From an uncultured Eubacteriales bacterium (GTDB lineage: Bacteria > Bacillota > Clostridia > TANB77 > UBA1234): a stretch of 64,000 nt of DNA. The notes below the pieces were generated by a model. It was not told where the DNA came from. It worked only from the letters and a program-made list of their open reading frames with translations, and searched no databases. Location: positions 644 to 64,643 of the forward strand of contig CAYNRR010000008.1 of the NCBI GenBank assembly GCA_964400015.1, in the 5' to 3' direction. This document shows positions 11,439 to 52,000 of the stretch, piece after piece (positions within the stretch are counted from its first letter, which is position 1; each line of letters begins with the position of its first letter). Position numbers and translations under genes: made by a program.

Positions 11439-11879
11439 TTACTCTTTAAATTTTATATCTTCTACTCTTTCATATTTTCCAGTTAAATAATCTACAACAT
11501 ATGGTGCAGATAAACCTTTATATGCTGCTAAAGAATCATCTCCAACTTTATACCTAATATCGCCCAATTCTTCGTCTTCTTCTCCTCCTGGCACAAGATA
11601 ATAGCCTGTTCCATATTCTTTATCACCAGAACCAATAACAACCTTATCACCATCAACTAAAGCAATTCCAACCATTACATTTTTATCAACCATTGCTTGT
11701 GTTAGCAAAGAACGAATTATTTCATTGTCTGCATATATAGTAGCTTCTTTTTTAGCTTCTCCCGAATCATCTATCATTCTCAAAGAATATCTTGTTGCAA
11801 CTCCTGCTAATATAACCATTACTATAACCGTAATCGCAACTGTCATAAGCGAAAGGCCTGAATTTTTCTTGATTTTCAT
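11439..11879 (-). CDS. Small pilin-like (prepilin-type N-terminus) protein, 146 aa. First gene of a three-gene minus-strand unit with ttcA and the NAGPA protein.
   Basis: N-terminus MKIKKNSGLSLMTVAITVIVMVILAGVA: short basic n-region, then G, then about 22 hydrophobic residues with no AxA site. Same K-x-G-[ILV]-S-[LM] motif as the giant proteins. GAGGTG SD. Confidence 0.5.
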   Translation of the reverse strand: MKIKKNSGLSLMTVAITVIVMVILAGVATRYSLRMIDDSGEAKKEATIYADNEIIRSLLTQAMVDKNVMVGIALVDGDKVVIGSGDKEYGTGYYLVPGGEEDEELGDIRYKVGDDSLAAYKGLSAPYVVDYLTGKYERVEDIKFKE

Positions 11880-12066: not shown

Positions 12067-12142
12067 CGGGGTGTGGCTCAGTTGGTAGAGTACGTGGTTT
12101 GGGACCATGGGGCCGGAGGTTCGAGTCCTCTCACCCCGACCA
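12067..12142 (+). tRNA. tRNA-Pro (anticodon TGG).
   Basis: Manual cloverleaf: 7-bp acceptor CGGGGTG/CACCCCG, D-arm, anticodon loop TTTGGGA (UGG), T-arm GGTTCGAGTCC, CCA end. Confidence 0.9.
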
Positions 12143-12146
12143 GTTA

Positions 12147-12188
12147 AAGACTTGAAAGAGTAATCTTTCAAGTCTTTTTGTTTTTTAT
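12147..12188 (+). terminator. Intrinsic terminator after tRNA-Pro.
   Basis: AAAGACTTGAAAG/CTTTCAAGTCTTT perfect hairpin followed by a T-run. Confidence 0.8.
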
Positions 12189-12376
12189 TTTAAATCAGCA
12201 TTTTGAAGGTTAATTTGTTTTCAAAAATTCCCTTTCAGTCATTTCATTACTTAAAATTTCCTATTTTTTATTCATTTAACGAATATTTTAAGCATATTTT
12301 ACATATTATAATAAGCAGTAATACGTACTTGATTTTCTCCACAAATTATCGTATAACGATAAAAATAGGTGATAAT

Positions 12377-12765
12377 ATGATATTGACTAATGATATTATA
12401 AAGTTAAATTTACAAGGTTATTCGAATAAAGATACTAAAATATGTAGAGAAGTAAAAAATGAAAATTTAATAAACGGTTTATATGAAACTGATTCAACTA
12501 TAAACGGATATCTTCTAGCAGGAAGTATTTATGGACCGTCTTATTTATCATTTGATTTTGAATTGTCATATTATGGTATAATTCCTGAAAAAGTAACAGC
12601 TTTTACAAATGCTACTTATGATAAAAAGAAGAAAAAAATGTATAAAACCAATTCGGAGTATTTTTATATAGAGATATACCATCAAATGTTTATCCTTTAG
12701 GAATAAACATTATCGAAGAAAATGATGCTAAAGAAGATGTTATTGTTTTTTATAGAAATAACTAA
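12377..12765 (+). pseudogene. AbiEi-like (type IV TA antitoxin N-domain-like) remnant, frameshifted in an A-run and truncated. No AbiEii partner nearby.
   Basis: GPSYLSFDFELSYYGIIPEKVTAF resembles the AbiEi SLESALEYHGLIP motif. The ORF ends at 12700, but the +1 frame continues as ...PSNVYPLGINIIEENDAKEDVIVFYRNN to 12765. The table's 12203 start is an upstream extension. Confidence 0.3.
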
Positions 12766-12896
12766 AAATCTTAATGTAAAATAATATTTCTTTAAATTTT
12801 ATGTAAATCATGTTATAATACTGTTAACAAGTCATTTGTTTTTATCCCTAGGCTAGGCAACAGTGATTTGGCATCATTATATTGGAGGGATTTACT

Positions 12897-13145
12897 ATGT
12901 TCGGTAAGTCGAAAAAGTTCAAGGGTTCTACTAAGATTACGTGTGCTCACGCCCTTGTGGAATCGCTCATCCAGCTCAATCCCACGGTTGCGTTTGAGTA
13001 CGATGATACCTATGATTGGATCAAGGTATCTTGCTCTCCTTCCGACCTCCGGCTTCCGGAACCGTTCTATTACAATGAAAAGAACGGCATCACCAACAAG
13101 CATCAGACTGCTAACGGTATTTATTTTTCCGTGATCGTTATCTGA
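12897..13145 (+). CDS. GC-rich (about 46% GC) small ORF A, 82 aa, unknown function. Compositionally foreign mini-cistron.
   Basis: Extended -10 TGTTATAAT at 12811, GGAGGG SD 7 nt before ATG 12897, terminator right after the stop. GC3-rich codons (ttc, aag, atc, tac) unlike the host. Open in three frames because of the high GC. Confidence 0.45.
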   Translation: MFGKSKKFKGSTKITCAHALVESLIQLNPTVAFEYDDTYDWIKVSCSPSDLRLPEPFYYNEKNGITNKHQTANGIYFSVIVI

Positions 13146-13159
13146 TTCTTGTATTCAAC

Positions 13160-13198
13160 GTGCTATTCGCTTGCGAATGGCACGTTTTCTTGTTTATT
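13160..13198 (+). terminator. Intrinsic terminator after GC-rich ORF A.
   Basis: GTGCTATTCGC/GCGAATGGCAC stem (one G-U pair) then GTTTTCTTGTTTATTT. Confidence 0.6.
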
Positions 13199-13378
13199 TA
13201 TACATACTCGGCTTACATTCTTATATCATATATTTTCTCCGTTTTATCATCTAATTATTTTTCAGTACACAATATATTTAAAATATATTTGTTATTATTT
13301 ACAAAAAATTTTTTAAATGGTATATTTCAAATATACACCACTTTTACGAGTGTACTTTTTAAGGAGATGATATTATAT

Positions 13379-14426
13379 ATGATAAAACCTAAAAGACTCA
13401 AAGAAGGAGATACTATAGCTCTTGTTAGCTTATCTAGTGGACTAATTGGTGAAAGTGCATTCATCCACAAATATACTTTAGCTCAAAAAAGATTAAAAGA
13501 AATTTTTGGACTTAATTTGATTGCTATGCCAAATTCTCTAAAAGGAATAGAATATCTTTACGATCACCCTGAAAAACGTGCTGAAGATTTTATGAATGCT
13601 TTTAAAGATGAAAATATACAAGGAATTATTTGCGCAATAGGTGGCGAAGATACAATTCGATTACTTCCTTATATCGATTTTGAAGTAATAAAAAATAATC
13701 CTAAAATTTTTTTAGGATATTCGGATACTACAATAAATCATTTTATGATGTATAAAGCCGGCGTCACCTCTTTTTACGGTCCAAACATTATGTGTGATTT
13801 TGCTGAATATGGAAATATGTACGAATATACCGAAAATGCAATAAAAGAATTACTTTTCCTTGCTAATTCTAAGTACGAAATGAAAAAAAGTTCATATTGG
13901 GTTAATGATTTTATAGAATGGGATGCAAAAAATATTGATAAAGTTAAAGAAAGAATTACTGATACAACAGGTTACGAAATCTTACAAGGTAGTGGTAAAA
14001 TAATCCGGAAAATTATTAGGAGGGTGCATTGATGTTTTTCCAATGTTAATTGGTACAAGCATCTGGCCATCTCTTGATGAATGGAAAAATAAAGTTTTAT
14101 TTTTAGAAACAAGTGAAGAAGCTCTCAAACCTCAAATGTTAAAATATTACCTTAGAGGACTGGCTGCCCAAGGTATTTTAAATTCTATAAAAGGAATTAT
14201 TTTTGGAAAACCACAAGGAAATATTTATTATGAGGAATATAAAGCTATAATTAAAGAAGTACTTAAAGAATATAATTTAGAAAATTTACCTGTTATGTAC
14301 AATTTGAATTTTGGTCATAATCTTCCAATACGGAATAATTCCTTACGGAATAGACTGTGAATTAGATTTAGATAACAAAAAATTATACTTTTTAGAAAAT
14401 GTAGTTGAATAACTAAAGTTAGTTTT
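13379..14426 (+). pseudogene. S66 LD-carboxypeptidase (MccF/LdcA-like) with two frameshifts. Paralog of 19161..20168.
   Basis: MIKPKRLKEGDTIALVSL...IFLGYSDTT (catalytic Ser motif). Frame break about 14000-14010 (QGSGKII... versus SGKLLGGCIDVFPMLIGT in the +1 frame). Second break about 14330 inside a TACGGAATA direct duplication (NLPIRNNS versus IIPYGIDCELDLDNKKLYFLENVVE). Confidence 0.75.
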
Positions 14427-14449
14427 GAATTAAAAAAATTTTACAACAA

Positions 14450-14490
14450 AAAGCCATCCCTATAAAATTAGATAGGGATGGCTTTTATTA
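14450..14490. terminator. Bidirectional terminator between the LD-carboxypeptidase pseudogene (+) and the HisRS-like gene (-).
   Basis: AAAGCCATCCCTA...TAGGGATGGCTTT 13-bp stem with T-run. Confidence 0.7.
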
Positions 14491-15732
14491 AAGTATTGCT
14501 AAAACTTTCTTAATTGTCAGTTCATCATCAATTTTATTTGATCGAATATTGATACCTTTTGAATTAAAAAACATGGCTACGCTTTCTTTGTAAAATTCAG
14601 AAGAAAAGAATGCTTTAATATTAAACTTTTTGCACGGCAAAATACAAAATTGATAATCTTCATTTAAAGTCGAAGCATTCAATTTGCACATTAAATTGTT
14701 GATAGTACATAATTTTTCAAAATCGTATACTCCATCAAGAATCAAGTAAACTTTCTTTTTCTTTTGCTTATCTTCCTGCATAAGTTGAGCCATAACTTGA
14801 ACACCTATGCCCATACATACACCGGGTACATTCAAAGAATTATTAAAACAATTGGTAAGAAAATCAATTCTTCCACCGTCAATAAGTAAATATTCACAAC
14901 TATCTTTAGATGCATATATACGATAATTCATACCAGAATAATGATTTGTACCACCAAGATTGCTAAGCGAAAAGCGAATTGGAATGCTGATTTTAAAAAT
15001 ATTTTGTAGTATTTCATACAATTCAATCGACTTTTTAATTTCTTCTACAACTCTGAAATCAGAAATCTTTTTTGAAATTTCCTCAAGTTCATCAAATGAA
15101 ATATTATTTTTCAAGTAAAGTTCTCTTAAAATAAGATAATCACTATGTTTTTCAAGTAATGTTTCTATGACAGTGATATCATTAAATCTAACCTTGCTAG
15201 CAATATCTTCTCCTAAAACATTAAGAAGATTTTGATTTGAAATTTGTAGATATTCATTATCAAAGCATTGAAGTTTTGATAACATTTCAATACATATGGA
15301 TATAAGTTCTGCATCAGCATAAAGTGACGTGGTCCCCCAAATTCCTAATAAAATTTGTTTAAAATTTTTTCTGTATCCTGGCAAATTGGGAATTCTGTCT
15401 CTATATAAATCATCCATTTGAATGAATTTATGTGTTATAGAAGCTGAATTAGGTAAATCTGCTATAAATCTACTCATCGACATCGCAAGATCTGATTTTA
15501 ATAAAAAGATTGATTTTTGTTTAGATCGTACAACTTCAAAAATTTTGCTAAAATGGACTTTTGTTGCTTTAAGATACCTTTCTTTTTCTTCAAAAGGAGC
15601 AGTTTGAAGTTTTAAAAAACCATTAGCATCTGCAATGTTGGAAATAATATCGTATATATATTCAATACATGCGATTTCTTCCCCATAAACATCATACACC
15701 TGTGAAATTTTACTCTCCGAACTCATAAACAC
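14488..15732 (-). CDS. Divergent class II aaRS paralog, HisRS/HisZ-like (414 aa).
   Basis: Motif-2-like LYRDRIPNLPGYRKNFKQILLGIWG (compare FRYERPQKGRYRQF.Q.G). HisRS motif-3-like LIDGGRIDFL (compare GGRYD.L). VCMGIGVQV (compare GFAIGLER). A C-terminal alpha/beta segment. Strongly diverged from a canonical HisS. Confidence 0.55.
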   Translation of the reverse strand: MFMSSESKISQVYDVYGEEIACIEYIYDIISNIADANGFLKLQTAPFEEKERYLKATKVHFSKIFEVVRSKQKSIFLLKSDLAMSMSRFIADLPNSASITHKFIQMDDLYRDRIPNLPGYRKNFKQILLGIWGTTSLYADAELISICIEMLSKLQCFDNEYLQISNQNLLNVLGEDIASKVRFNDITVIETLLEKHSDYLILRELYLKNNISFDELEEISKKISDFRVVEEIKKSIELYEILQNIFKISIPIRFSLSNLGGTNHYSGMNYRIYASKDSCEYLLIDGGRIDFLTNCFNNSLNVPGVCMGIGVQVMAQLMQEDKQKKKKVYLILDGVYDFEKLCTINNLMCKLNASTLNEDYQFCILPCKKFNIKAFFSSEFYKESVAMFFNSKGINIRSNKIDDELTIKKVLAIL

Positions 15733-15760
15733 TCACCGCCTTTTAAGGTAGTATTATGAA

Positions 15761-16639
15761 TTAAACCTTTCCTACAATAAAAATCTGGTTACCTCTTGCT
15801 GCAATATCATCTGCATAAAAAAGTTTTTTCTCAATTTCAAAAACTTTATCAAAAATATCCTTCTTTTCAAGAATATCTTCCAATACCTCAGTAGAACCAT
15901 GAAGTTGAGTTTCAGCATAACCAGGATAAATAACGTTAGGAAAACCAGAAACTCTTTCTACTGTGATTTCAGCTACATCATACATATTACGAATTTTAGT
16001 AGGAGTATACATATGCATAAAAGGCATATTATCAGTGAATTTCGACATTTCATCGTGCATAGCTGTTTCAACATATTTAAAATTGTTTACCGAAATATTG
16101 AAAAATAAATTATGATAAAGATTTGGAACCAGCGAAACAACATAGCCACCAGGCTTAGTTACTCGGGATAACTCATTTAGTGCAACTTGTGGATATTGAA
16201 CAAACCCCAAAACATTGTGAAAATTAAAGCTTACATCAACTATATTAGATGCATATTCCAAATGTTCAATGTTACCTTCAGAAATGCAAAGCCTACTTGA
16301 ATATTCCGGCAATACAAATTTCTTCTTTGCTTCAGCAAGCATATCGACAGATAAATCAACAAGATATCCTCTTGAATTCGGATATTCTTCAAGAATTTTC
16401 TTAGTCCACCGTCCTGTTCCTCCACCTGCATCAAGGAAAACAAAATTAGGTGGAAGTTTATTTAAGACTTCATTCTTAAAAAAGTACCAAAGTAACTTAT
16501 CTGATAAAACCCAGTAAATCTGATTTTCGACATCATCATATGCCGAAGCTTTCTGAGCAAAATAGCTCTGCACACCTGTAATAGTTGTTGCCATGAAATT
16601 TCCTCCTTTATTAAATGGTTGGGAATACTTATAAGCCAT
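15761..16639 (-). CDS. Class I SAM-dependent methyltransferase.
   Basis: Motif I LDAGGGTGRWT, post-I acidic YLVDLS, motif II/III region. The start may be the internal Met (MATTITG...). In an operon with the HisRS-like gene. Confidence 0.7.
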   Translation of the reverse strand: MAYKYSQPFNKGGNFMATTITGVQSYFAQKASAYDDVENQIYWVLSDKLLWYFFKNEVLNKLPPNFVFLDAGGGTGRWTKKILEEYPNSRGYLVDLSVDMLAEAKKKFVLPEYSSRLCISEGNIEHLEYASNIVDVSFNFHNVLGFVQYPQVALNELSRVTKPGGYVVSLVPNLYHNLFFNISVNNFKYVETAMHDEMSKFTDNMPFMHMYTPTKIRNMYDVAEITVERVSGFPNVIYPGYAETQLHGSTEVLEDILEKKDIFDKVFEIEKKLFYADDIAARGNQIFIVGKV

Positions 16640-16675
16640 TCAGACACCAGAATTCTAGCACACATTATTTTTACT

Positions 16676-16718
16676 GTCAACGTTTTTTGTTGACTTATTT
16701 CGAAAATGATGGTAGAAT
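16676..16718 (+). promoter_or_regulatory. SigA-type promoter (TTGACT-17-TAGAAT) for the aaRS-paralog operon. A GTCAAC-N7-GTTGAC palindrome overlaps the -35.
   Basis: TTGACT 16690-16695, TAGAAT 16713-16718, spacing 17. Inverted repeat 16676-16681/16689-16694. AAAGGAGGT SD at 16742. Confidence 0.55.
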
Positions 16719-16757
16719 TCTAACGAAAATTCAAACTATTTAAAGGAGGTTCGTACT

Positions 16758-17792
16758 ATGAAAAACAACCCTAATGTCCCTGATTTTCGCGAATATCCCG
16801 AAAGTTATTATCTCAACATCATATCATCCAAATGGTATATTACCCTCACAAAGTTACACGATGTTATTTCTAGAGCAACAATGGCTTTTTGGTCTAGTAG
16901 AAATGTGAAAACGCTTTACCTTCCTATCACCACTTCATCTATTTCAAGTCCTATGGGATTAGGAAGTGATTCTTCTCCTGTTAGTGTTAATCTCTTCGGT
17001 ATTCAAACATATCTTGCAGATTCTATGCAATTCATGCTTGAATACGGTTGCAGATTTTTAAATGATGGCTGCTATTATATTATGCCTTCATTTCGTGGAG
17101 AAAATGCTGATGAACGCCATTTATGCCAATTTTATCATAGTGAAGCTGAACTTCCTTGTGATTTAAATGGTATCATTTCTGTTGTTGAAGACTATCTGCT
17201 TCATATAACTCATGCGATTTATGTAGAAATGAAAAAAGATCTTGAAGAAATCGTACCGTCTCTATCACACATCGAAGAATTTCTTTCTCAAGGTAAAAAA
17301 ATTTTCAAGCGCATTACTTTTGAAGAAGCAATCGAACTATTAAAGTCTTATCATAAAGACATCGAAAAATATGTGCAATTCAACGAAGGATATCGGGTAA
17401 TCAACTCCGCTGGCGAACTTGAAATTTTAAAGATTCTCGGAGATTTTGTTTGGATTACTAATTATGATATTCTCAGCGTGCCTTTTTATCAAATGACTGA
17501 TCCTTGCGCAACTACTACAACCAAAAATGCTGATCTTCTTTTTGGCATAGGTGAAGTAGTTGGCTCTGGTGAACGTCATGAAACTTCCGATCAGGTAATT
17601 GAAAGTCTTAATAAAAGAAATGTTGATTCTAAACCCTACGAATGGTACATTACTATGAAGAATCAATTTCCTCTTAAGACTTCTGGTTTTGGTATGGGAA
17701 TCGAACGCTATCTTATGTGGCTCTTGCAACATAATGATATTCGTGATATGCAAATTTGTCTACGTTATAATGGTCTCACTATGATTCCATAA
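16758..17792 (+). CDS. Class II aaRS catalytic-core-only protein (AsnRS/AspRS-like, AsnA-type). No anticodon-binding domain.
   Basis: Motif 2 SFRGENADERHLCQFYHSEAE (fRxE..RHl.EF...E). Motif 3 GFGMGIERYLMWLL. 344 aa with no N-terminal OB fold. Only about 100 nt of leader, too short for a T-box. Confidence 0.6.
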   Translation: MKNNPNVPDFREYPESYYLNIISSKWYITLTKLHDVISRATMAFWSSRNVKTLYLPITTSSISSPMGLGSDSSPVSVNLFGIQTYLADSMQFMLEYGCRFLNDGCYYIMPSFRGENADERHLCQFYHSEAELPCDLNGIISVVEDYLLHITHAIYVEMKKDLEEIVPSLSHIEEFLSQGKKIFKRITFEEAIELLKSYHKDIEKYVQFNEGYRVINSAGELEILKILGDFVWITNYDILSVPFYQMTDPCATTTTKNADLLFGIGEVVGSGERHETSDQVIESLNKRNVDSKPYEWYITMKNQFPLKTSGFGMGIERYLMWLLQHNDIRDMQICLRYNGLTMIP

Positions 17793-17812
17793 AAGATAAG
17801 GAGATAAGTATT

Positions 17813-19075
17813 ATGTTAATGTCTAAAAGTGCCTATATTTCTCGAAGAATTGAAAAACTCGACGAAATGTTCCCAGCTCAAGATATTCTTGAGCAAACAG
17901 GGCAAATTGTTAAATTCGAAAGTGGTCTTTGGGGATTCAGTACAATTCCTTCAAAGGTCATGAGAAATGTATCAAATATCATTCGTGAAGAACTTGATTC
18001 TATTGGATGTATTGAAGTTTCTCTACCGATTCTTCAACCGTCTAATATTTGGAAGGCTTCTGGACGCTGGGAAAAATACGTAAAGTCTGATGCGATGTTC
18101 ACTATTTCTAATAAAATCGGTGAATATTGTCTCGCACCTACAGGTGAAGAAGCAATGACTACTTTCATCAATCAATATTCCAAATCTTATCGCACACTTC
18201 CATTCACATATTATCAAATTGGTCAAAAGTATCGTAACGAACTTCGTACTCGTGGCTACATGATTCGTTGTAAAAGTTTTGAAATGATGGACGCATATAC
18301 TTTTGCTAAATCTAACGAGGAAGTTGTTGAAAGTTATAACAAAATTCGTGAAGCTTATTTTCGCATTTTTGCAAGATTAGGATTTGAAGTTATTCCAATT
18401 GCTGCAAACAATGCTGAATTCGGTGGCAAAAAATCTGAAGAATTCATGATTCTTTCAAAATATGGCGATGATAAAATACTGGTTAATCTCGAAAAGAAAA
18501 TTGGTTTTAATACCGAAATTCTCGAACGTGCTGATGCTTCTGAATATCTTTCACAAGAGTTTGGAATTGATGATATCAATTCTTTAAAGCAAGTTCGTGG
18601 TGTTGAAATTGGGCATATTTTTCAACTCGGCACATCGTATTCTAAAAACATGAATATCATGTACACCGATTCTGCCGGTCAAAAACAGCCCTATCATATG
18701 GGATGCTTTGGCATTGGAATTAGCAGAATTGTTGCCATGATTTATGAGATGAACACGCTTGTTTATAATAATAAAACTGTTGGTTTTTCTCTACCGGAAG
18801 AAATCGCTCCTTATAAATACTACATTGTAGCTTTTAATAAAGATTCTGAAAAATTCACACAAGCCTTTAAGTTGTATGAATGTTTGCGTAAAAAAGGCAT
18901 CTCTGCTATTCTAGACGATAGAGATGAACGAATTGGTGTAAAAATGAATGATTGCAAAGCTATGGGAATCCCTAACGCAATCATCATAGGAACAAAAACT
19001 CCTTCAGGGGTTGCTGAACTCGAAAATATTCGAACTGGTGAAAAAAAACTCGTGGCATTTGACGAATTTATTTAA
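17813..19075 (+). CDS. ProRS-like class II aaRS (420 aa, no editing INS domain), probably a paralog.
   Basis: LAPTGEE. Motif 2 YQIGQKYRNELRTRGYMIRCKSFEMMDAYTF. Motif 3 GCFGIGISRIV. C-terminal anticodon-binding domain. 20 nt downstream of the aaRS-core gene with an AAGGAGA SD. Confidence 0.75.
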   Translation: MLMSKSAYISRRIEKLDEMFPAQDILEQTGQIVKFESGLWGFSTIPSKVMRNVSNIIREELDSIGCIEVSLPILQPSNIWKASGRWEKYVKSDAMFTISNKIGEYCLAPTGEEAMTTFINQYSKSYRTLPFTYYQIGQKYRNELRTRGYMIRCKSFEMMDAYTFAKSNEEVVESYNKIREAYFRIFARLGFEVIPIAANNAEFGGKKSEEFMILSKYGDDKILVNLEKKIGFNTEILERADASEYLSQEFGIDDINSLKQVRGVEIGHIFQLGTSYSKNMNIMYTDSAGQKQPYHMGCFGIGISRIVAMIYEMNTLVYNNKTVGFSLPEEIAPYKYYIVAFNKDSEKFTQAFKLYECLRKKGISAILDDRDERIGVKMNDCKAMGIPNAIIIGTKTPSGVAELENIRTGEKKLVAFDEFI

Positions 19076-19093
19076 CAAAATATAATATTTTAT

Positions 19094-19133
19094 GGAGCAA
19101 CTGTCATTATAACAGTTGCTCCTTTTTTATTTT
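19094..19133 (+). terminator. Intrinsic terminator after the ProRS-like gene.
   Basis: GGAGCAACTG...CAGTTGCTCC 10-bp stem then TTTTTTATTTT. Confidence 0.7.
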
Positions 19134-19160
19134 GAAAATTAACTGTAAGGAGATATTTTT

Positions 19161-20168
19161 ATGGTTATTCCACCTAAACTCAAACCTGGGGATGAAATTA
19201 GAATATTAGCTCCAGCTCAAACTCTACGCATTGTAAGTGATTCTGTAATCGAAATTGCAATGAAACGTCTTAACGATCTTGGATTCAAAGTATCTTTTGG
19301 AAATTTTGTTTGGGAAACCGATAATCTTTTGAACAACGCACCTTATACGCATCGGATTAAAGATATTAACGATGCCTTTAATGACCAAAATGTAAAATGT
19401 ATTTTAAGTGCTATAGGTGGATACTCATCTATAGACGTTATAGATGGAATTGACTACTCTGTAATAGAGAAAAATCCAAAAATCTTCTGTGGATTTTCTG
19501 ATATTACAATAATTGAAAATGCCATTACATCTCAAACTGGATTATTAACTTACTATGGACCACATTTTTCAAGTTTCGGTATGCTTGAAGGATTTGAATA
19601 TACAGAGTTAAACTTTATGAAAATGCTTTCTACAACTTCCCTTACTCATAAAATTTATCCTGCACAATATTGGAGTGATGATTCTTGGTTCATCAATCAA
19701 AAAGATAGAAAATATATTGCTAATAAAGGATTTTTTACAATCAATGAGGGAGAAGTTTGTGGCGAAATTATTGGTGGTAACATAACGTCTCTGTGTACAC
19801 TAATGGCAACAAAATATGCACCTGATCTTTCTAACAAAATTCTTTTTATCGAAGATGTATGTGAAGACTCATCTACTTTTTATAGAACATTTGATATGAA
19901 ATTAGAGACCTTACTTTTAAATCCAACATTTATAAAAGTTAAAGGACTAGTAATTGGCAGGCTTCCTGGTATATTACCAGAACCTATAAAAAATATCGTT
20001 AAAATTGTGAAGAATAAGAAAGAACTAAATAATATTCCTGTTTTATATGGGGTTGATTTTGGTCATACGACACCAATACTTACAATCCCGATTGGCGGTT
20101 ACTGCCATATAAAATGTGATAAACAAAATCCTTCAATTGAGATTTCTGAATTTCCGATTTACTTATAA
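19161..20168 (+). CDS. S66 LD-carboxypeptidase (MccF/LdcA-like), intact.
   Basis: IFCGFSDITII (Ser nucleophile motif), ...VDFGHTTPILTIPIGG (His region). 335 aa. Paralogous to the 13379 pseudogene. Confidence 0.8.
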   Translation: MVIPPKLKPGDEIRILAPAQTLRIVSDSVIEIAMKRLNDLGFKVSFGNFVWETDNLLNNAPYTHRIKDINDAFNDQNVKCILSAIGGYSSIDVIDGIDYSVIEKNPKIFCGFSDITIIENAITSQTGLLTYYGPHFSSFGMLEGFEYTELNFMKMLSTTSLTHKIYPAQYWSDDSWFINQKDRKYIANKGFFTINEGEVCGEIIGGNITSLCTLMATKYAPDLSNKILFIEDVCEDSSTFYRTFDMKLETLLLNPTFIKVKGLVIGRLPGILPEPIKNIVKIVKNKKELNNIPVLYGVDFGHTTPILTIPIGGYCHIKCDKQNPSIEISEFPIYL

Positions 20169-20215
20169 CTATATCATTCATATGATTCTCTGTATCCTTC
20201 ATACTTTTCTCACAC

Positions 20216-20244
20216 TTGACATAATTTTAATAAAATGCTACAAT
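20216..20244 (+). promoter_or_regulatory. Consensus SigA promoter TTGACA-17-TACAAT driving GC-rich ORF B.
   Basis: TTGACA 20216-20221, TACAAT 20239-20244. Confidence 0.55.
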
Positions 20245-20287
20245 AATCTTGGCATCAAAATTTATTATGTATGGAGGTACACCAGAG

Positions 20288-20635
20288 ATGTCTTATATTG
20301 ACATAAGTGCAGAAAAGGACGGAGACGCTTACCTGAAAATGCTTGAGGGTGTCGACAACGATACTTTAACTCTTAAAAGTCATTTTCCTGATGTCCAAGC
20401 CGATTCCCACGCATTAGCAGAGCTGACAATCTCTTCTCCCAATGGTTCGCCCATTACGTGTATTGTTTCGAGCAGGGAAAGTTGCATTATATACAATCCC
20501 GGCAAAATGCAAATCAGCACTGCTTCTCCCATTGGCAAGTTTGTTTCCGACAACAGGCACAACCTCAAACCGGGTATGACTTTACCCAACGGCTCTACAA
20601 TTTTGAACGTCGCGTACGTTAATATTGAAGAGTAA
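20288..20635 (+). CDS. GC-rich (about 45% GC) small ORF B, about 115 aa, unknown function. Its own promoter, SD and terminator.
   Basis: GGAGGT SD 9 nt before ATG 20288 (alternative start 20249). Composition is very different from its neighbours. Followed at once by a strong terminator. Confidence 0.45.
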   Translation: MSYIDISAEKDGDAYLKMLEGVDNDTLTLKSHFPDVQADSHALAELTISSPNGSPITCIVSSRESCIIYNPGKMQISTASPIGKFVSDNRHNLKPGMTLPNGSTILNVAYVNIEE

Positions 20636-20642
20636 AACAATT

Positions 20643-20680
20643 AACCCCTGTTTCAACTCGAAACAGGGGTTTCCCTTTTA
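20643..20680. terminator. Bidirectional intrinsic terminator shared by ORF B (+) and the phosphohexomutase gene (-).
   Basis: AACCCCTGTTTC...GAAACAGGGGTT 12-bp stem flanked by T/A runs. Confidence 0.8.
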
Positions 20681-22057
20681 TATATTTAATTTTTCAATTT
20701 CTTCATTTATGTATTTCTTTATTTGTTCAATTATTTCATTGGCTGCTTCTGGTGTTGTTGATTCTGCCTTTATTGTAAGATTTGGTCCAGTATTTGAATA
20801 TCTTACAAGTCCCCATCCGTGACCTACTATGACTCTAGCACCGTCTACACCTATAACTTTATATCCTTCTGAAATATATCTGTTCTTTACATTTTCAACT
20901 ATTTGAGCTTTGGTGTCGTCTGTAACTTTTACGATAATTTCTGGTGTTCCAGCGTATCTTGGCAATCCCTCTGAAAGCTCTGACATTTTTTTGTCTGTAT
21001 TTGATAAGATTCTTAATAATCTTGCTCCTGCATACATTGCATCATCATAACCATAATGCTCATCATTAAAATATATATGACCAGCATATTCTCCTGCAAA
21101 AATTAAATTTTCTTCTCTTATTTTTGCTTTAATTAAAGAACTTCCTACTTTACAAAATTCAGGTATTCCTCCTAATTTTTCAATTTCTTCATACAATGCT
21201 TGTGTACATTTTACATCAAGAATTCCTTTTGAACCTGGATATTTTGGCATCAAGTCTCTCCAAATTAAAGCCATATATTCATCACCAAATAATATTTTTC
21301 CATTTTCATCAAATGCAATTACTCTATCTGCATCTCCGTCAAATCCTAATCCTATATCACATTTATTATCTACAACAAATTTTTCAAAATCTAGCATATT
21401 TTTTTCTTGTGATGGATCTGGATGATGTATTGGAAAATCTCCATCAGATTCGCAACATACTGGTAAAACTTCGCAACCAAGTTTAGTGAAAATTTCTTTT
21501 GCAAATAGTGAACCTACACCATTTCCACAATCAATAGCCACTTTGAGTTTTCTATCGCCTAACTTCACTTTATTTACAATATAATTTATATATTCTTCTC
21601 TAATATCTTTATGTTCAACAGTTCCCTTTATATCAGATTGTGCAAATTCACCTTTTTCAATAAATTTTCTTAAATCTTGAATTGTTTCACCATATATAGT
21701 ATCAGTTCCTAATGCACATATTTTAAATCCATTGTATTCTTTAGGATTATGGCTGGCTGTAATCATTATTGAAGGTTTTATTCCTAGTAATTCTCTCGCA
21801 AAATAAGACATTGGTGTAACACAAAATCCAATATCTACAATGTTCATACCTGTTTCAAGTATTCCTTCTACAAGACCGTCATGTAAATCTTCATAAGATT
21901 TTCTATTGTCATGTCCTACTATTATTTTTGTTTCTCCCTCGTTTTTCATCCAAGTTGCAAATCCTAATCCTATTTTTCTTGCAACTTCTCTATCAATTTC
22001 ACTAGGATATATTCCTCTTATATCGTATCCTCTAAAAATATTCTTTGGTATTTCCAT
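20678..22057 (-). CDS. Phosphomannomutase/phosphoglucomutase (alpha-D-phosphohexomutase family).
   Basis: Active-site ITASHNPKEYNGFK, metal loop GFDGDADR, sugar-binding GEYAGH. Confidence 0.85.
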   Translation of the reverse strand: MEIPKNIFRGYDIRGIYPSEIDREVARKIGLGFATWMKNEGETKIIVGHDNRKSYEDLHDGLVEGILETGMNIVDIGFCVTPMSYFARELLGIKPSIMITASHNPKEYNGFKICALGTDTIYGETIQDLRKFIEKGEFAQSDIKGTVEHKDIREEYINYIVNKVKLGDRKLKVAIDCGNGVGSLFAKEIFTKLGCEVLPVCCESDGDFPIHHPDPSQEKNMLDFEKFVVDNKCDIGLGFDGDADRVIAFDENGKILFGDEYMALIWRDLMPKYPGSKGILDVKCTQALYEEIEKLGGIPEFCKVGSSLIKAKIREENLIFAGEYAGHIYFNDEHYGYDDAMYAGARLLRILSNTDKKMSELSEGLPRYAGTPEIIVKVTDDTKAQIVENVKNRYISEGYKVIGVDGARVIVGHGWGLVRYSNTGPNLTIKAESTTPEAANEIIEQIKKYINEEIEKLNI

Positions 22058-46057: not shown

Positions 46058-49000
46058 ATGAGAAAACAAAAAGGTATTTCTATGGTTTCGTTAGTTATAA
46101 CAATCGTAGTCTTATTCATATTGCTTGGAATAGGTTTTTCGTATTCCAATAATTCAATAAAACAAGCTGGTAGAGGAGTGTTTGTCAGAGAACTTTCACT
46201 TGTTCAACAAGCAGCTAACGAAAAGAAATTAGATAACCAGATTGAAGGTAGTTCAGAAGAAATAAAGTTTAAAGGCTTTTATAAAACGAAAATAAAAAAT
46301 CCTCCTGTAAGTTTTGCGAGCTTTAGTGAAGATGAAATCTATGGATATGTAATAGACCTAGAATACGTTCATACAGAAGATGCAGACAGAGGACATGATT
46401 ACAAACGTTTTGCTAAAGACATAGAAAATAACGTTGTCGAATTCGGAAAAGACGATGTATATGTATGCGATAAAGACGGAAATGTATTTTATGCAAAAGG
46501 TTATCAAACGGATGAAGGAACATACTATTCAAAAAATGAAATAGAAGGACTAGGACCAGAATTCGTATCGATAGATAAAATAATATCATCAGATGCAAAG
46601 AGTGCAATAATAAGAGTCGTAGTAAAGAAAAGCAATAGTGGAGATCTAAGCTTAAAAGTAGACGATGAAGATGCAACAAAAATAGGAACATCAGATGATG
46701 GCACGATGGATACATTTGAAAAAGAAGTGTTTGAAAACAAAACATACAAACTAACAGCAGCAGAAGAAAAAGATGGAACAATAGGAAAAACAACATCATC
46801 AGTAGAAGTAACAGAACTAGACGTAATCACATACGTAATGAAATACGATGCAAACGGTGGAACAGATGCACCAGCATCACACTTGAAAACAGAAAATATA
46901 ATAGCAAGATTATCAACGCAAATTCCAAATAGAGATGGCTACACATTTTTAGGATGGAACGAAAATCCATCAGCAACAATAGCAACATACAAACCAGGTG
47001 GTGAGTATGTATTCGATAGAGACATAACATTCTTCGCAGTATGGAAAGAAGGAAAAGTAAGAACATACAATGTAACATATAATGCAAATGGTGGTACAAA
47101 TGGACCACTATCACAAGAAAACTTAAGTGGAGATTATACAATATCAAACATAACTCCAACTAGAGATGGATATGGCTTCTTAGGTTGGAACGAAGATTCA
47201 AGAGCAACAACAGCCACATACAATCCAGGCGACACAATCACACTTACAAAAAATTTAGCATTATATGCAATATGGGCAAAAGGAACATACACAGTAACAC
47301 TATCAACAAATCCAGAAGGAGCAGGAACAGTAACAGGTAGCACGGCAAAAGTAGATGGAGTTGAAACATACATATCAACAATAGCAAATCCAGGATACAT
47401 ATTTAAAAATTGGACAGTAAAATCAGGAAGCATAAACTTAAAAAATTCAGCATCAACAACAACATCATTCATAATGCCAAAAGAAAATGTAGAAATAGTA
47501 GCAAATTATGAAGTTGGAGATTTAACAGTAAAATACAATGCTAATAAAGGAAAAGGTGCACCATCAGAAGAATCAGCAAAATACGGCGACACAATAATAA
47601 TAAGTCCTAAAATTCCAACAAGGGCAGGATATGACTTCGTAGGTTGGTCATTAAAACAAACAGCAACAGAAGGAACATACTTTGCAGGACAAACATATAC
47701 AGTAAAAGAAAACGTAACATTTTATGCAATATGGAAAGAAAACATTCCAACATACACATTAACATTCAACTTGAATGGTGGATATGGAAACAAAGCAGGA
47801 GAAATAGGAAAATTTGCATCAATAACAAAAGTAAAAGGTGGAAAAATAACAATCCCAGTAGGTGGTGCAGACGAACCATATAGAAAAGATTATGTATTCA
47901 AAGGCTGGGCATTAAATCCAGACTCAAAAGAAGTAGTTTTAAATCCAGGAGACATATATTCAAAAGATGCAGACATAGAAATATATGCAGTATGGAAAGA
48001 TGAAACACCACCAACATTAGTATTAACACCAAAACAAGAAGAAGGTTCAAGCGAAGTAAAAATTATAGCAACAGCACATGACGAAGGAAGCCTTGCTGGA
48101 TATGCTTGGACAAAAACAAACGTAGAACCAACAATATGGGAAACAGAAGAAATAAAAGGAACAGACCTAACAGTAGAAAAAACAATAAAAGAAAAAGGAG
48201 AACACTACTTTTGGGTAAAAGACACAGCAGGAAACGTAGTATCAGAATCAATAAAAGCATACGAAATAAAATATGATGCAAACGGTGGAACAAATGCACC
48301 AGAAACACAATATCAACTAGAAAACGTAGACTTAAGGTTATCAACACAAAAACCAAAATTAGAACAATATACATTCTTAGGATGGTCAACATCAGCAGCA
48401 CCAGGCAATACAGAAAGTGACGTAAACTTTAAAAGTGGAGCAATATTAAATATAAACTCAGACATCACACTAAAAGCAGTATGGGGTGAAGCAGGCTTCA
48501 AGCTAAGCACGAAAAATGTGACAACACAAATAGATGGACCAAGTGTAACAGTAACAGTAACAAAAAGTTCATACACAGGAAACATAACAGTATCAAGTGC
48601 AGACACAGAAAAAGCTACAGCAACAATAAAAGACAACACAATAACAATAACACCAGGAACAAAAATCGGTGATGTAGAAATAACAGTAACAGAAGATGCA
48701 GAAGGAACAACAGAAAAAATACTAGTAATAGTAAATAGAGGAATAAGAAAAATAACATTAGACAAAACAGAAACAGAATTCACATATGGAGACTCAAGTG
48801 AAAAAATAGGATTCACATATAACGGAAAATCAACAACATTATCAACACAAACAAGCAACTCAGAAGTTGCAACAGCAACAGCAACAGACAAAACACTTAC
48901 AATAAAACCAAAAAATACAGGAACAGCAACAATAACATTAGTGTTAGCTCAAGACGATCAATACTTAGAACAAACAGCAAAAGTAGAAGTAACAATAACA

Positions 49001-52000
49001 AAGAGAAAAATAATAGTTACACCAGACGCAAATCAAAACAAAGAATATGACGGAACAGCGTTAACACCAACAATAACATACACATACACAGGCAACAAAG
49101 GAAGCGAAACACCAAAATTCACAGGAGAACTAGCAAGAGAAATAGGAAGTGAAATAGGGGAATATGTAATAACAATAGGAACATTAGCATTAGCAGACAA
49201 CGGAGACTTCAAAGCATCAAACTACACATTAGAACTATCAACAACAAAAATATATTTCACAATAACAGCAAAAAAAATAGCAGTACCATCAGCAATAACA
49301 CCACAAGAATATGATGGAACAACAAAATACGGTGTAGCAGAAGGCGAATACTATATAAGAGGTGGAGAATATCAAAAAATAAATGCAGGCAAATACACAG
49401 CAACAGTAACACTAAAAGACATCAAAAACTATGTATGGGAAGACACAAACACAACAACAGCCAAAAACATAAAATGGGAAATCACCAGATATAATCTATC
49501 AAATGCAGATATTACCGTAGAAACAATACCAAATAAAGAATACACAGGAACTGAAATAACACCAATTCCAGTAGTAAAAAAAGGCGAAACAACATTAGAA
49601 AACGGAAACGATTATACATTAACATACAAAAACAACGTAAATGTAGGAACAGCAACAATAACAATAGAAGGAAAAGGCAACTATGAAGGAACATTAACAA
49701 CAACATTTGAAATAACATCAGCAACAATGCAAGTAGACGCATCAGGATATACAGGAATGTATGACAATGCAAATCACTCAATAAAAGTAACACCAATATG
49801 GCCAACAGCAGGATACACAATATACTACTCAACAATAGAACTAACGCAAGCAAACTACAAAACAGACGGAACAACAACAAATCCAACATACAAAGATGTA
49901 GGAACAACAACAGTGTACTACTACATAGTAGCGTCAAACTTCAAAGACTACACAGGAAACGAAACAATAAAAATAACATCAAAAGATATATCAGGAAACT
50001 TAACAATATCAGGAATCGTAGACAAAACATATACAGGTAGTCAAATAACACAAACAATAACAGTAAAAGATAATGATCAAAATAGAAACCTAGAAGAAGG
50101 AAAAGAATACACAGTAACATATAAAGACAACATAAAAGTAGGAACAGCAACAATAACAATAGAAGGAAAAGGCAACTACGCAGGAACAATAACAAAAACA
50201 TTCAAAATACTAGGAGACACAATCACAATAGCAAAAGACACAGAAGCAGTAGTAGAAAAGCTAGAAATAACAATAACAAGAACACTAACACCAGGAAAAC
50301 TACAATACAAAATAAACAATGGAGAATGGAAAGACTACAGAGGACCATTTGAAATAACAGAAGACTGTACAATTTATGCACGTTCAATAGATGGAGAAAA
50401 CATACTAGGAACAAACGAACTACAAATAACAAACATATGTGAGCACGAATACACAGAAGTAACATGTACAGAAGACTCAGTATGTAAATATTGTGGAAAA
50501 CTAAACAAAGAAAAACTAGGACATGACTTCACATCAAAAACACCAACAGTAGCATATCAATGCACAGCAACAACATGTACAGAAAAAGCAACATACTACT
50601 ACAAATGTACAAGATGTACAGAAAAAGGAACAGAAACATATGAATATGGCGAAGCACTAGGCCATGACTTCACATCAAAAACAGCAACAGCAACATATCT
50701 ATGTACACCAGCAACATGTACAGAAAAAGCGACATACTACTACAAATGTACAAGATGTGCCGCAAAAGGGACAGAAACATACGAATACGGAGAACCAGAC
50801 GGCCACGACTTCACTTCAAAAACACAAACACAAGAATACTGGAAATCAGACGCAACATGTACAGTAGCAACAACATACTACTACAAATGTACAAAATGTG
50901 AAGCAAAAGGAACAGCAACATACACAGTAGGAAGTCCACTAGGACATGACTTCACAGAAAAAATAATAAACGACACATACATCTGCACAACAGCAACATG
51001 TACAAAACCAGCAACATACTATTACAAATGTTCAAGATGTAACGAAAAAAGCACAGAAACATATGAATACGGTGAACCACTAGGACATAGTTATGGAGAA
51101 TATGTAGAAAAACAAGCTGCAACATGTGTAACAGAAGGAATAGAAGAAGCAACATGTATAAGATGTGGAACCACAACAACAAGAACAACAGCAACAAATC
51201 CAGAAAACCACGAAGGCACAATACAAGAAATAGAAATAACAGCCGCAACATGTACAACAACAGGAAGAAAGAAATACGTATGCTCAGCATGTAACGGTAT
51301 AATAAGATACGAAACAATAGCAGCACTAGGCCACGACTGGGATGCAGAAGAGCCACCAAGAGAATGTAGAAGATGTGGCTTAAGAGAAGAATACGTAGCA
51401 CAAGCAATCTACTGCGAATCAGACGGCTCATTAACATTTATAAAGAGTTTAACAGAATACCAAGCAGGCGATACATATGATGGAAAAATAGTAACAGTAG
51501 TGTATAAGGGGTTTGAGACAGAGGAATATTCGAGTGGAACAGCTGTACCTTGGTATGAAAATAGAGAAAAAATCACAAGTGTTAGAGTAACAGATAGTAT
51601 CGAACCAATAAGTACAGCATATTGGTTTAAAAATTTTGAAAATTGTGGATCGTTCGATTTAGGAAAGCTTATTACAGACAATGTAATAGATATGAAATAT
51701 ATGTTTAGTCGAGCAGGATATAATGCAGAAAGAGTAGAAATTGCTGGACCACGTTCATGGGATACATCAAAAGTAACAGATATGAGTTTCATGTTTGAAT
51801 ATACAGCATGTACTTCTGAGATATTTACTCTAGACTATTTAGATAATTTAGATGTTTCTAGTGTAACCAATATGCAAGGTATGTTTAATACTACAGCTAT
51901 TAGCACTACAACATGGAGTATAGGTAACTTAAGTAATTGGAATGTATCGAACGTAATAGATATGTCAAGCATGTTTGCATGTGCAGGATATTATTCTACA

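Follow-up and report, generated by a model that had tools for sequence, protein, structure and literature searches.

The 64,000-nucleotide stretch of DNA analyzed here, called the window throughout (contig CAYNRR010000008.1 of assembly GCA_964400015.1, from an uncultured Eubacteriales bacterium), carries between a tRNA-Pro gene and a phosphoglucomutase (PGM) gene an island whose core resembles the agn operon of plasmid pAgK84 from Rhizobium rhizogenes K84, the operon of agrocin 84, a “Trojan-horse” antibiotic that imitates an activated amino acid and is a commercial biocontrol agent. We read this core as an agn-like biosynthesis and immunity module, with a probability of about three in four. 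In the more specific form that we rather favor, it would be a compact cluster making a mimic of prolyl-adenylate, with a prolyl-tRNA synthetase (ProRS) for self-resistance and a peptidase of family S66 for MccF-type immunity or for a biosynthetic step. By analogy with agn, we give an even chance to ProRS being the target of the product. The functional core of the island occupies positions 14488–20168 and is made up of the following five genes:

14488–15732, minus strand: 414-aa gene related to histidyl-tRNA synthetase (HisRS) and HisZ, called HisZL here (PF13393, TIGR00442/TIGR00443)
15761–16639, minus strand: class I S-adenosylmethionine (SAM) methyltransferase of the MTb type (Pfam Methyltransf_11/25/31)
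16758–17792, plus strand: AgnA-type asparaginyl-tRNA synthetase (AsnRS) core of 344 aa (PF00152)
17813–19075, plus strand: ProRS of 420 aa without an INS domain, starting 20 nt past the AgnA-like gene (TIGR00409)
19161–20168, plus strand: intact S66 peptidase of 335 aa (Pfam S66, S66C)

The 344-aa protein is, judged by its sequence, a truncated AsnRS of the AgnA family and the signature enzyme of the cluster. It is 39.6% identical over 96% of its length to AgnA of pAgK84 (annotated as ‘Agrocin84-synthetase’; E 9e-70 in tblastn against plasmids and 1.65e-81 in blastp), compared with only about 25% identity to true AsnRS. PF00152 covers residues 31–331 and Pfam finds no OB anticodon-binding domain, in keeping with the initial annotation, which had described a catalytic core lacking that domain. 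Class II motifs 2 and 3 are retained and, like the Mg/ATP residues, can be aligned to AsnRS, and 110 alignment columns are invariant across 16 members of the AgnA-like family. The AlphaFold (AF2) model has a pLDDT of 77.6 and its best Foldseek matches are AsnRS cores, with 1x54 at the top. The archaeal-type AS-AR proteins (PDB 3p8t, 1nnh) are likewise AsnRS cores without an anticodon-binding domain. The window protein differs from them by its low score, 32 bits against Pyrococcus AS-AR as against 93 for AsnRS cores and 243 for AgnA, and by its accessory, mobile context.

In public resources these proteins are labeled ‘asparagine synthetase A’. The window protein stays under the cut-offs of both NCBIfam models of that name (236 versus 322 bits for NF005053 and 216 versus 389 for NF005055). 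Since AgnA itself is sub-threshold in the same way (191 and 199 bits) and a member from a streptococcal AgnA-like cluster passes the NF005053 cut-off, the label does not discriminate function. This name, like ‘ATP phosphoribosyltransferase regulatory subunit’ for the HisZL family, is probably a misleading over-annotation. The best matches to the two models are AgnA and AgnA-like proteins of antibiotic-type clusters (locus L091, 15920–16981; locus L098, 5765–6769).

The resemblance to agn extends to the neighboring genes. agnA encodes a shortened AsnRS, with the catalytic but not the anticodon domain, which has been proposed to join an amide moiety to AMP via a phosphoramide bond, and agnB2 encodes a self-immunity leucyl-tRNA synthetase (LeuRS) whose sensitivity to the toxic moiety is about 1000-fold lower (PMC4392301; PMC8323819). 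The annotated operon reads agnA, a SAM methyltransferase gene (agnB1), agnB2 (‘Agrocin 84-resistant leucyl-tRNA synthetase’), agnC1, further genes including agnC5 (‘MccF-like protein’) and finally the radical SAM gene agnC7, and NUDIX genes and an ATP-binding cassette (ABC) pump lie near it. The island shares with it the AgnA-type truncated AsnRS, a SAM methyltransferase gene directly beside the AgnA-type gene, an extra full-length aminoacyl-tRNA synthetase (aaRS) gene immediately downstream (the proven resistant LeuRS AgnB2 in agn, ProRS in the island), a counterpart of the MccF-like S66 protein AgnC5 and a location on mobile or variable DNA. They differ in size and host, agn having 17 genes in a rhizobium and the island five in a low-GC Firmicute, and the island methyltransferase belongs to a subfamily other than that of AgnB1 (18% identity).

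The initial annotation had seen here an accessory locus for an aminoacyl-adenylate-type metabolite, of no known cluster type. That interpretation is partly supported. It was right in substance, given the homology to AgnA and AgnC5 and the variability among strains described below, and wrong on cluster type: the core logic is common with agn, and agn-like clusters with an extra methionyl-tRNA synthetase (MetRS) have been predicted (PMC8323819).

The intact S66 peptidase falls by sequence on the MccF side of its family. Against structures in the PDB it scores 315 bits with BA_5613 (the B. anthracis ‘MccF-like’ protein), 128–150 with MccF and 39–78 with LdcA, and on the NCBIfam LdcA model it reaches 107 bits against a cut-off of 378. 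The protein is 27.5% identical to AgnC5 over its full length (E 2.5e-32), and its catalytic Ser, Glu and His motifs (GFSDIT, LFIED, FGHT) align with those of BA_5613. The earlier preference for an MccF-like enzyme over a murein LdcA is thus upheld. BA_5613 and Lmo1638 are its nearest solved relatives, neither with an assigned substrate. MccF is known to release aspartate from aspartyl-N-P-adenosine (PMC8323819), and the island enzyme is predicted to hydrolyze acyl-N-P(nucleotide) bonds, either for immunity or for biosynthetic trimming.

A second S66 gene lies at the other edge of the island (13379–14411, plus strand). As noticed previously, it carries two frameshifts, read from the DNA near 14025 and 14325, so that the Pfam S66 N- and C-terminal domains are on separate open reading frames (ORFs), and the same split is found in two relatives carrying the island (L002 and L003). 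The window's two copies share only about 32% identity (tblastn) and therefore do not stem from a recent duplication. In a metagenome-assembled genome (MAG) of Clostridia (L048, at about 11–13 kb) the S66 gene of a ProRS-type cluster is also split, into 209 and 129 aa. The split genes there and in the window could reflect recurrent decay or a common slippery site.

The ProRS occupies the place that AgnB2 has in agn. It scores 367 bits on TIGR00409 (cut-off 307), in two stretches, and does not reach the cut-offs of PRK09194 and PRK12325. Long ProRS structures in the PDB align with it in two stretches on either side of the missing INS, in line with the short enzyme without INS described earlier, and an HGTP anticodon-binding domain is present. 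It should charge tRNA, since it passes TIGR00409, keeps the anticodon-binding domain and has intact motifs. Among 174 positions at least 95% conserved in 115 relatives, 26 are replaced in all five island-type ProRS copies, including positions in the motif-2 loop. Such a pattern is typical of a diverged paralog, and is not proof of resistance. Six of the 26 replacements lose a tyrosine (Y20F, Y35F, Y42F, Y250F, Y299F, Y242A), so that tyrosine hydroxyls disappear systematically. Given that close relatives lack the island, the lineage must have a ProRS gene at another place, and the island enzyme is most likely a second, accessory copy. By analogy with AgnB2 we predict that it is a second version of the target enzyme that confers self-resistance.

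The methyltransferase gene, whose likely start is at 16594 (ribosome-binding site and ATG read from the DNA), adjoins the AgnA-like gene in the manner of AgnB1 in agn. Profile comparison links it to the AgnB1 family (hhalign probability 99%, E 6e-18, 18% identity) over the Rossmann core only. Methyltransferases of the MTa (AgnB1-like) and MTb types alternate beside AgnA-like genes across loci.

The fifth protein, HisZL, had been described as a HisRS/HisZ-like paralog. Its fold bears this out: the AF2 model (pLDDT 89.7) gives a full-length Foldseek match to HisRS (1wu7, E 3.6e-25) and shows the full two-domain HisRS/HisZ fold at 13–19% identity. Its function does not, and we rejected both identities. 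Its scores, 51 bits on PF13393 and 80 on TIGR00442/TIGR00443, lie far under cut-offs of 272–287, no hisG partner is present in the island, and the positions aligned to what we take to be the His-binding residues (E83, T85, E131 and R259 of E. coli) are replaced. The ATP-site skeleton, on the other hand, is invariant across the family. A resistant HisRS is excluded by the low identity to HisRS, the replaced His-binding residues and a homolog coupled to a carrier protein, and an analogue of AgnC1 by homology was likewise discarded (nothing in BLAST; hhalign E 0.54). With ‘HisL2’, a group of HisRS-like ligases found in other sub-families, it has only a weak local match (E 1e-3). The family, which sources label HisZ, is small, with only 56 members among 5.8 billion proteins, from Clostridia MAGs, E. 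faecium, B. thuringiensis/cereus, S. suis, S. pyogenes, Paludifilum and Streptomyces. In a Streptomyces there is translational coupling between a homolog, a carrier protein and a nonribosomal peptide synthetase (NRPS). We predict from these features that HisZL is an active, biosynthetic ligase that activates an amino acid.

Some members of the family lie in settings of their own. In Streptomyces sp. NBC_00820 (L100; CP108882.1, 1–18674) the HisRS-like homolog shows translational coupling to a carrier protein, an adenylation enzyme, a C-A-T-R NRPS and a FemAB-like protein, and adjoins genes for GTP cyclohydrolase I, PTPS, a radical SAM enzyme (QueE-like), IMPDH and a phosphoribosyltransferase; this cluster may be a deazapurine-peptide hybrid. 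In Streptococcus suis (L098/L099; GCA_000940715.1 and GCA_013268615.1, 3787–11462) a mobile element with a relaxase and three serine recombinases carries an Rgg regulator and, under its control, an operon encoding a methyltransferase, an AgnA-like protein, an ATP-grasp enzyme, an S66 peptidase, HisZL and a major facilitator superfamily (MFS) transporter. Being in a cultured pathogen, this locus offers a tractable, exporter-containing relative of the window cluster. A truncated HisRS-like homolog (P0198, 319 aa) occurs in 314 S. pyogenes-type sequences.

The island is variable among close relatives, as the synteny comparison shows. Contigs of two relatives match the dnaA...gyrB-PGM backbone at 86–88% nucleotide identity and are island-free: homology breaks off precisely at the stop codon of PGM (window 20677/20678), and beyond it these contigs carry a phage-type integrase, an excisionase-like helix-turn-helix protein and defense genes (reverse transcriptase, MmeI, Schlafen-like), with no aaRS-like genes past that stop codon. 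L002 and L003 (91.7% identity) have the same island at the same site. In L001, whose proteins are about 80% identical, the five-gene core occurs alone at another chromosomal site, beside sua5, and since the core recurs together there, its grouping is beyond chance. The putative biosynthetic proteins (AgnA-like, methyltransferase and HisRS-like) are 76–91% identical in relatives, and the nearest named relatives of the island proteins come from MAGs designated ‘Clostridia bacterium’. Only short, chance-level att-type repeats of the tRNA-Pro 3′ end were found, and there is no integrase in the island. Taken together, these comparisons indicate that the segment from 12.1 to 20.7 kb was acquired horizontally, as an island, at a tRNA-Pro/PGM hot-spot.

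These observations largely refute the null hypothesis of the initial annotation, to which we give very little credence, that the locus is a chance adjacency of scattered housekeeping genes: proS, an asparagine synthetase gene, a hisZ and the gene of a murein LD-carboxypeptidase. It draws on the ProRS passing a proS model, on an INS-less ProRS that is housekeeping in a related lineage and on the finding that tblastn detects no other aaRS gene and no second proS within the 64-kb window. Yet relatives sharing the flanks lack the island, the five genes recur jointly at a second site, the AsnRS core is homologous to AgnA, the S66 protein fails the LdcA model by a wide interval (107 versus 378 bits) and is closer to MccF, and the supposed HisZ (80 versus 272 bits) has no hisG and belongs to a patchy family of 56 members in biosynthetic-cluster or mobile contexts. 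In addition, the plus-strand genes of the island, which lie left of the GC-skew sign switch at about 29 kb that marks the replication origin (with dnaA, dnaN, recF and gyrB alongside), run head-on to replication, and T-boxes and other riboswitches are lacking throughout the window, where tRNAs are the sole Rfam matches at the gathering and E ≤ 1 thresholds. The initial annotation had pointed to both of these last features.

How the genes are expressed bears on a further alternative. The following sites were found in the core:

16640–16757: divergent promoter region of 118 bp with near-consensus -35/-10 pairs on both strands
16680–16652, minus strand: promoter-like site, TTGACA-17-TAGAAT
16690–16718, plus strand: promoter-like site, TTGACT-17-TAGAAT
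16676–16694: 19-nt palindrome GTCAACGTTTTTTGTTGAC across both -35 boxes
19059–19086: promoter-like site of the intact S66 gene
19094–19122: terminator-like hairpin after the ProRS gene

The region between the two diverging transcription units thus has the promoter-like sites on both strands that had been proposed for it, and the palindrome GTCAACGTTTTTTGTTGAC is a candidate operator. The intact S66 gene follows a terminator and has a promoter-like site of its own. This arrangement, the lack of an exporter, the local decay visible in one S66 pseudogene and an AbiEi remnant, and the fact that stand-alone MccF homologs are common and can give resistance (PMC8323819) would fit a resistance-only or decaying remnant, in which the spare ProRS and the S66 peptidase guard against prolyl-adenylate- or microcin-C-type toxins made by neighbors. 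We think this quite unlikely: the AgnA-like, methyltransferase and HisRS-like genes are all intact, the promoter-like sites are strong and close to consensus with a common palindrome, and the proteins keep 76–91% identity in relatives, with the unit present at a second locus.

To place the AgnA-like protein among its relatives, we turned to the contexts of its homologs, an exact-sequence context look-up of the window protein having returned nothing. The AgnA-like family comprises proteins of about 340 aa, with more than 2000 matches at E ≤ 1e-10. With one genome per species, 210 relatives, all 45–56% identical to the window protein, were collected, and 80 loci were kept, in which neighbors within 9 kb of the AgnA-like gene were counted by tblastn. 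Within the Firmicutes the hosts are MAGs of gut Bacilli and Clostridia together with Anaerobacterium, Virgibacillus and Robertmurraya, and elsewhere they are many Streptomyces, Kitasatospora, Nonomuraea, Catenulispora, Pseudoalteromonas, a deltaproteobacterium, a bacterium of the candidate phyla radiation, Coxiellaceae and Herpetosiphonaceae. Plasmid copies occur in Pantoea, Bacillus pseudomycoides, Peribacillus, Exiguobacterium, Xenorhabdus and Streptomyces. The distribution is patchy, as in horizontal gene transfer.

An S66 peptidase was found in 53/80 loci and a methyltransferase of the MTa or MTb type also in 53/80, the two together in 41/80. The S66 gene is as conserved with AgnA-like genes as the methyltransferase gene is, which bears on the biosynthetic option for S66. 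Canonical aaRS genes are present in 34/80 loci, often duplicated and with Streptomyces included, and their types are Met (8), Pro (7), Phe (7), Gly (4), Leu (3), Tyr (3), His (2) and Asp (1). At about 54% identity to the window protein, members already show the recurring SAM methyltransferase, S66 peptidase and extra aaRS, the type of which varies (MetRS twice, GlyRS twice, others). ‘HisL2’ HisRS-like ligases occur in 9/80 loci and HisZL of the window type in 3/80. Counterparts of AgnB1, AgnC3, AgnC4, AgnC7 and AgnB2 are found in subsets of the loci, RimL/MccE-type GNAT genes adjoin S66 in several of them, and MFS or ABC exporters, S. suis and actinobacteria included, recur in related loci, as do B12-radical-SAM enzymes.

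With about 22 aaRS genes per genome, we estimate that 0.05–0.3 aaRS genes would fall by chance within an 18-kb neighborhood. Since duplicates of the same aaRS and pairs of PheRS alpha and beta genes are frequent even in the 8-Mb genomes of Streptomyces, the linkage is well beyond chance. The same inference, from Agn homologs with a second aaRS to a different aaRS target, underlies the agn-like clusters with an extra MetRS predicted in actinobacteria and Ensifer sp. ENS09 (Travin, Severinov and Dubiley 2021, PMC8323819). The route to those clusters was AgnC1, a protein that the island lacks, and the present survey recovers loci with MetRS (L047, L054, L065, L068, L069). We found no report of agn-like clusters in Firmicutes, or linked to Pro, Gly, Phe, Tyr or His, in the full-text literature, a coverage from which subscription journals are largely missing.

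Some AgnA-like genes of the survey have other companions. Six Pantoea agglomerans plasmids (L092; e.g. NZ_CP141611.1, 70565–73076) encode an AgnA-like domain (50% identical) within a protein of 427 aa that looks like a fusion, is annotated solely as a GNAT acetyltransferase and is followed by an MFS transporter. In six loci (L011, L012, L015, L022, L030, L032) an isoaspartyl-dipeptidase-like amidohydrolase gene, not S66, follows the AgnA-like gene. This sub-family is often beside a PurD-like GAR synthetase and a 220-aa protein, which hints at beta-aspartyl or purine-linked chemistry.

Replacement of S66 by these dipeptidase-like enzymes fits beta-aspartyl amides, and so bears on the alternative of a non-nucleotide product derived from amino acids. 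The AgnA-like protein would then be an amide synthetase of the AsnA type, acting on an acyl-adenylate with an amine or ammonia; the HisRS-like protein and ProRS would provide a tRNA-dependent step with activated amino acids or Pro-tRNA, and the product would be capped by the methyltransferase and trimmed or recycled by S66. The family name in public models, with one member passing NF005053, the ATP-grasp ligases in several clusters and the Streptomyces HisZL homolog that feeds a carrier protein and an NRPS are all compatible with it. Against this, AgnA, the only genetically defined member, acts in a nucleotide-phosphoramidate pathway and is itself sub-threshold on the ‘asparagine synthetase A’ models, while duplicated full-length aaRS of eight specificities, an MccF-like S66 and an MccE-type GNAT form the signature of toxins that target aaRSs. 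We therefore hold a non-nucleotide product to be unlikely.

For the agn-like module the following pathway may be envisaged. The AgnA-like enzyme would use ATP to form an adenosine nucleotide with an N-acyl-phosphoramidate bond, or a close kin of it, with the acyl part, resembling an amino acid, supplied or activated by the HisRS-fold ligase. The methyltransferase would decorate the product, one option being methylation of the phosphoramidate as in phosmidosine. The product would mimic prolyl-adenylate and inhibit ProRS, a target suggested by the ProRS gene that stands in the operon at the place of the resistant LeuRS in agn. The co-transcribed, diverged and INS-less ProRS would keep the tRNA-Pro of the producer charged, as AgnB2 does for tRNA-Leu, and the separately promoted S66 peptidase would cleave the acyl-N bond of toxin in the cytoplasm, as in MccF-type immunity. 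Alternatively, AgnA-type enzymes would adenylylate the carboxamide nitrogen of Asn and S66 would then remove aspartate, leaving adenosine 5′-phosphoramidate to be acylated later.

A molecule of this kind exists in nature: phosmidosine is a Streptomyces N-prolyl O-methyl phosphoramidate of 8-oxoadenosine and a natural mimic of prolyl-AMP (PMC6429109). It combines the N-acyl phosphoramidate and the methyl group that would be expected from an AgnA-like enzyme, a methyltransferase and a ProRS, as a chemical analogy only. No description of its gene cluster was found in the full-text literature just mentioned, with the same limit of coverage. Microcin C is likewise a non-hydrolyzable aminoacyl-adenylate with an N-acyl phosphoramidate bond, as proposed for the island product, and has S66 immunity (MccF) as the island may have, with a MccE/RimL-type GNAT in related loci. 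It differs in targeting AspRS with no resistant copy of the target, and its adenylating enzyme is MccB where the island has an AsnRS paralog. Indeed no MccB/ThiF-like protein was found among island ORFs of at least 50 aa with Pfam, NCBIfam and PADLOC, as had been stated before, and no search for a heptapeptide (MccA) ORF was made.

The biosynthetic option for S66 can be extended to the whole family, in a form that we regard as doubtful and that is argued by analogy. The AgnA-like enzyme, S66 and the methyltransferase might form a universal cassette making an adenosine 5′-phosphoramidate scaffold, methylated or not, from Asn, which swappable ligases would acylate, giving a modular platform against at least eight aaRSs, each with its resistant copy. 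The ligases would be HisRS-like, AgnC1, ATP-grasp, truncated MetRS or GlyRS enzymes, with the window island as the prolyl member, and the platform would, equally doubtfully, be widespread in gut Firmicutes and Streptomyces. The methyl phosphoramidate (MeOPN) of the Campylobacter capsule, made by a glutamine-derived phosphoramidate route, offers an analogy for an Asn-derived scaffold.

Several observations weigh against the agn-like interpretation. Agrocin 84 is the sole family member with a measured product, activity or resistance, and its pathway is itself stated to be ‘unknown’ (PMC8323819). The HisRS-fold ligase of the island has no equivalent in agn, and kinship of the methyltransferase to AgnB1 is distant, with no significant BLAST match. 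No window protein matches AgnC0/C1, AgnC2-4, C6, C7, AgnD-F (for the opine-like uptake moiety) or the AgnG pump, and exporter and uptake-moiety genes are lacking in the island, unlike agn or the S. suis relative. Since AgnC1/C0, the tailoring genes and the pump are absent, the island should be seen as a reduced variant and not as a full member of agn. In a crude neighbor-joining (NJ) tree the window ProRS does not group with the ProRS of other agn-like clusters, and a monophyletic clade of cluster-associated ProRS is unsupported by that tree. Finally, the nearest ProRS relatives outside such islands (50–54% identity) are also INS-less, one of them in a housekeeping context. The missing INS is for this reason no evidence of paralogy: it was a weak argument in the initial annotation, and we dropped it as proof.

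A last point on the same side comes from gut Bacilli with small genomes. In about 16 of their loci (including L007–L009, L013, L014, L020, L028, L030, L036, L037, L040 and L043) the AgnA-like gene directly follows rel (HD/RelA_SpoT/TGS), with an overlap of 4 nt in L007–L009. These loci are rich in ‘house-cleaning’ genes (NUDIX, Ham1, HAD, PNP, GNAT), which suggests a tie between the clusters and the stringent response or nucleotide detoxification. Linkage of rel to AgnA-like genes without mobile genes nearby could mean a physiological, not an antibiotic, role. Together with the lack of an exporter in the island, it is what recommends an endogenous growth-control nucleotide, throttling the ProRS of the cell itself in a stringent- or persistence-like manner with S66 as antidote, in the style of a toxin-antitoxin pair. 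For the window we find this highly improbable. A resistant copy of the target in the same operon would cancel self-inhibition, the characterized relative is an exported antibiotic, and the relatives in S. suis and actinobacteria carry MFS or ABC exporters.

If the agn-like reading is true, the island would provide a compact and tractable model for AsnRS-derived enzymes that make aaRS-inhibiting nucleotides. It would also predict a proline-specific natural inhibitor of ProRS, a validated drug target, together with its resistance determinant. The wider family would then represent a large unmined store of target-labeled aaRS inhibitors in gut bacteria, in mobile elements of streptococci and in Streptomyces.

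Around the core, the variable region and its flanks contain the following features; all the elements listed in the initial annotation (AbiEi remnant, GC-rich ORFs, the pair of S66 genes, the aaRS-like trio and the methyltransferase) were recovered at or near the positions it gave, and profile searches of the 414-, 344- and 420-aa proteins confirmed them as a HisRS-like protein, a PF00152 core and a TIGR00409 ProRS.

12067–12142, plus strand: tRNA-Pro(UGG), left edge of the variable region (ARAGORN; Rfam tRNA, 64 bits)
12146–12177: terminator-like hairpin after tRNA-Pro (terminator scan)
12377–12697, plus strand: truncated AbiEi-type antitoxin remnant (PADLOC AbiEi, E 3.8e-24)
12897–13145, plus strand: 82-aa ORF, 45–50% GC versus about 20% around it, with a promoter-like site (12791–12819), a ribosome-binding site and a terminator (13157–13186)
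20288–20635, plus strand: 115-aa GC-rich ORF, last gene before the island boundary 20677/20678, with a promoter-like site (20216–20244) and a bidirectional terminator (20643–20671)
20678–22057, minus strand: PGM gene, right flank

The AbiEi gene is truncated, as the PADLOC match is limited to profile positions 4–108/192, the N-terminal half; Pfam gives no match. It is debris of an earlier mobile or defense element at the hot-spot. An anti-phage defense system was ruled out for the island, only this flanking remnant matching PADLOC: the five core proteins have no PADLOC or PHROG defense match apart from a generic methyltransferase hit. The 82-aa and 115-aa ORFs, which match nothing in Pfam, PADLOC or PHROGs, stand out in window DNA of 26–36% GC. 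They bracket the agn-like genes, each with a consensus promoter-like site and a strong terminator, and are kept in L002 and L003 and missing from L001. They may serve in immunity or regulation, or may be cargo unrelated to the cluster.

Elsewhere in the window two giant ORFs are present, one of more than 2283 aa at 1–~6850 (minus strand), truncated where the window begins, and another of 4523 aa at 46058–59629 (plus strand). They have prepilin-type N-termini (MKKQKGVSMVSLVITIIV and MRKQKGISMVSLVITIVV), bodies rich in Thr, Ser, Gly and Asn and an extreme AT skew. With a 146-aa pilin-like gene near them (11439–11879, minus strand), they look like giant pseudopilin-anchored surface proteins.

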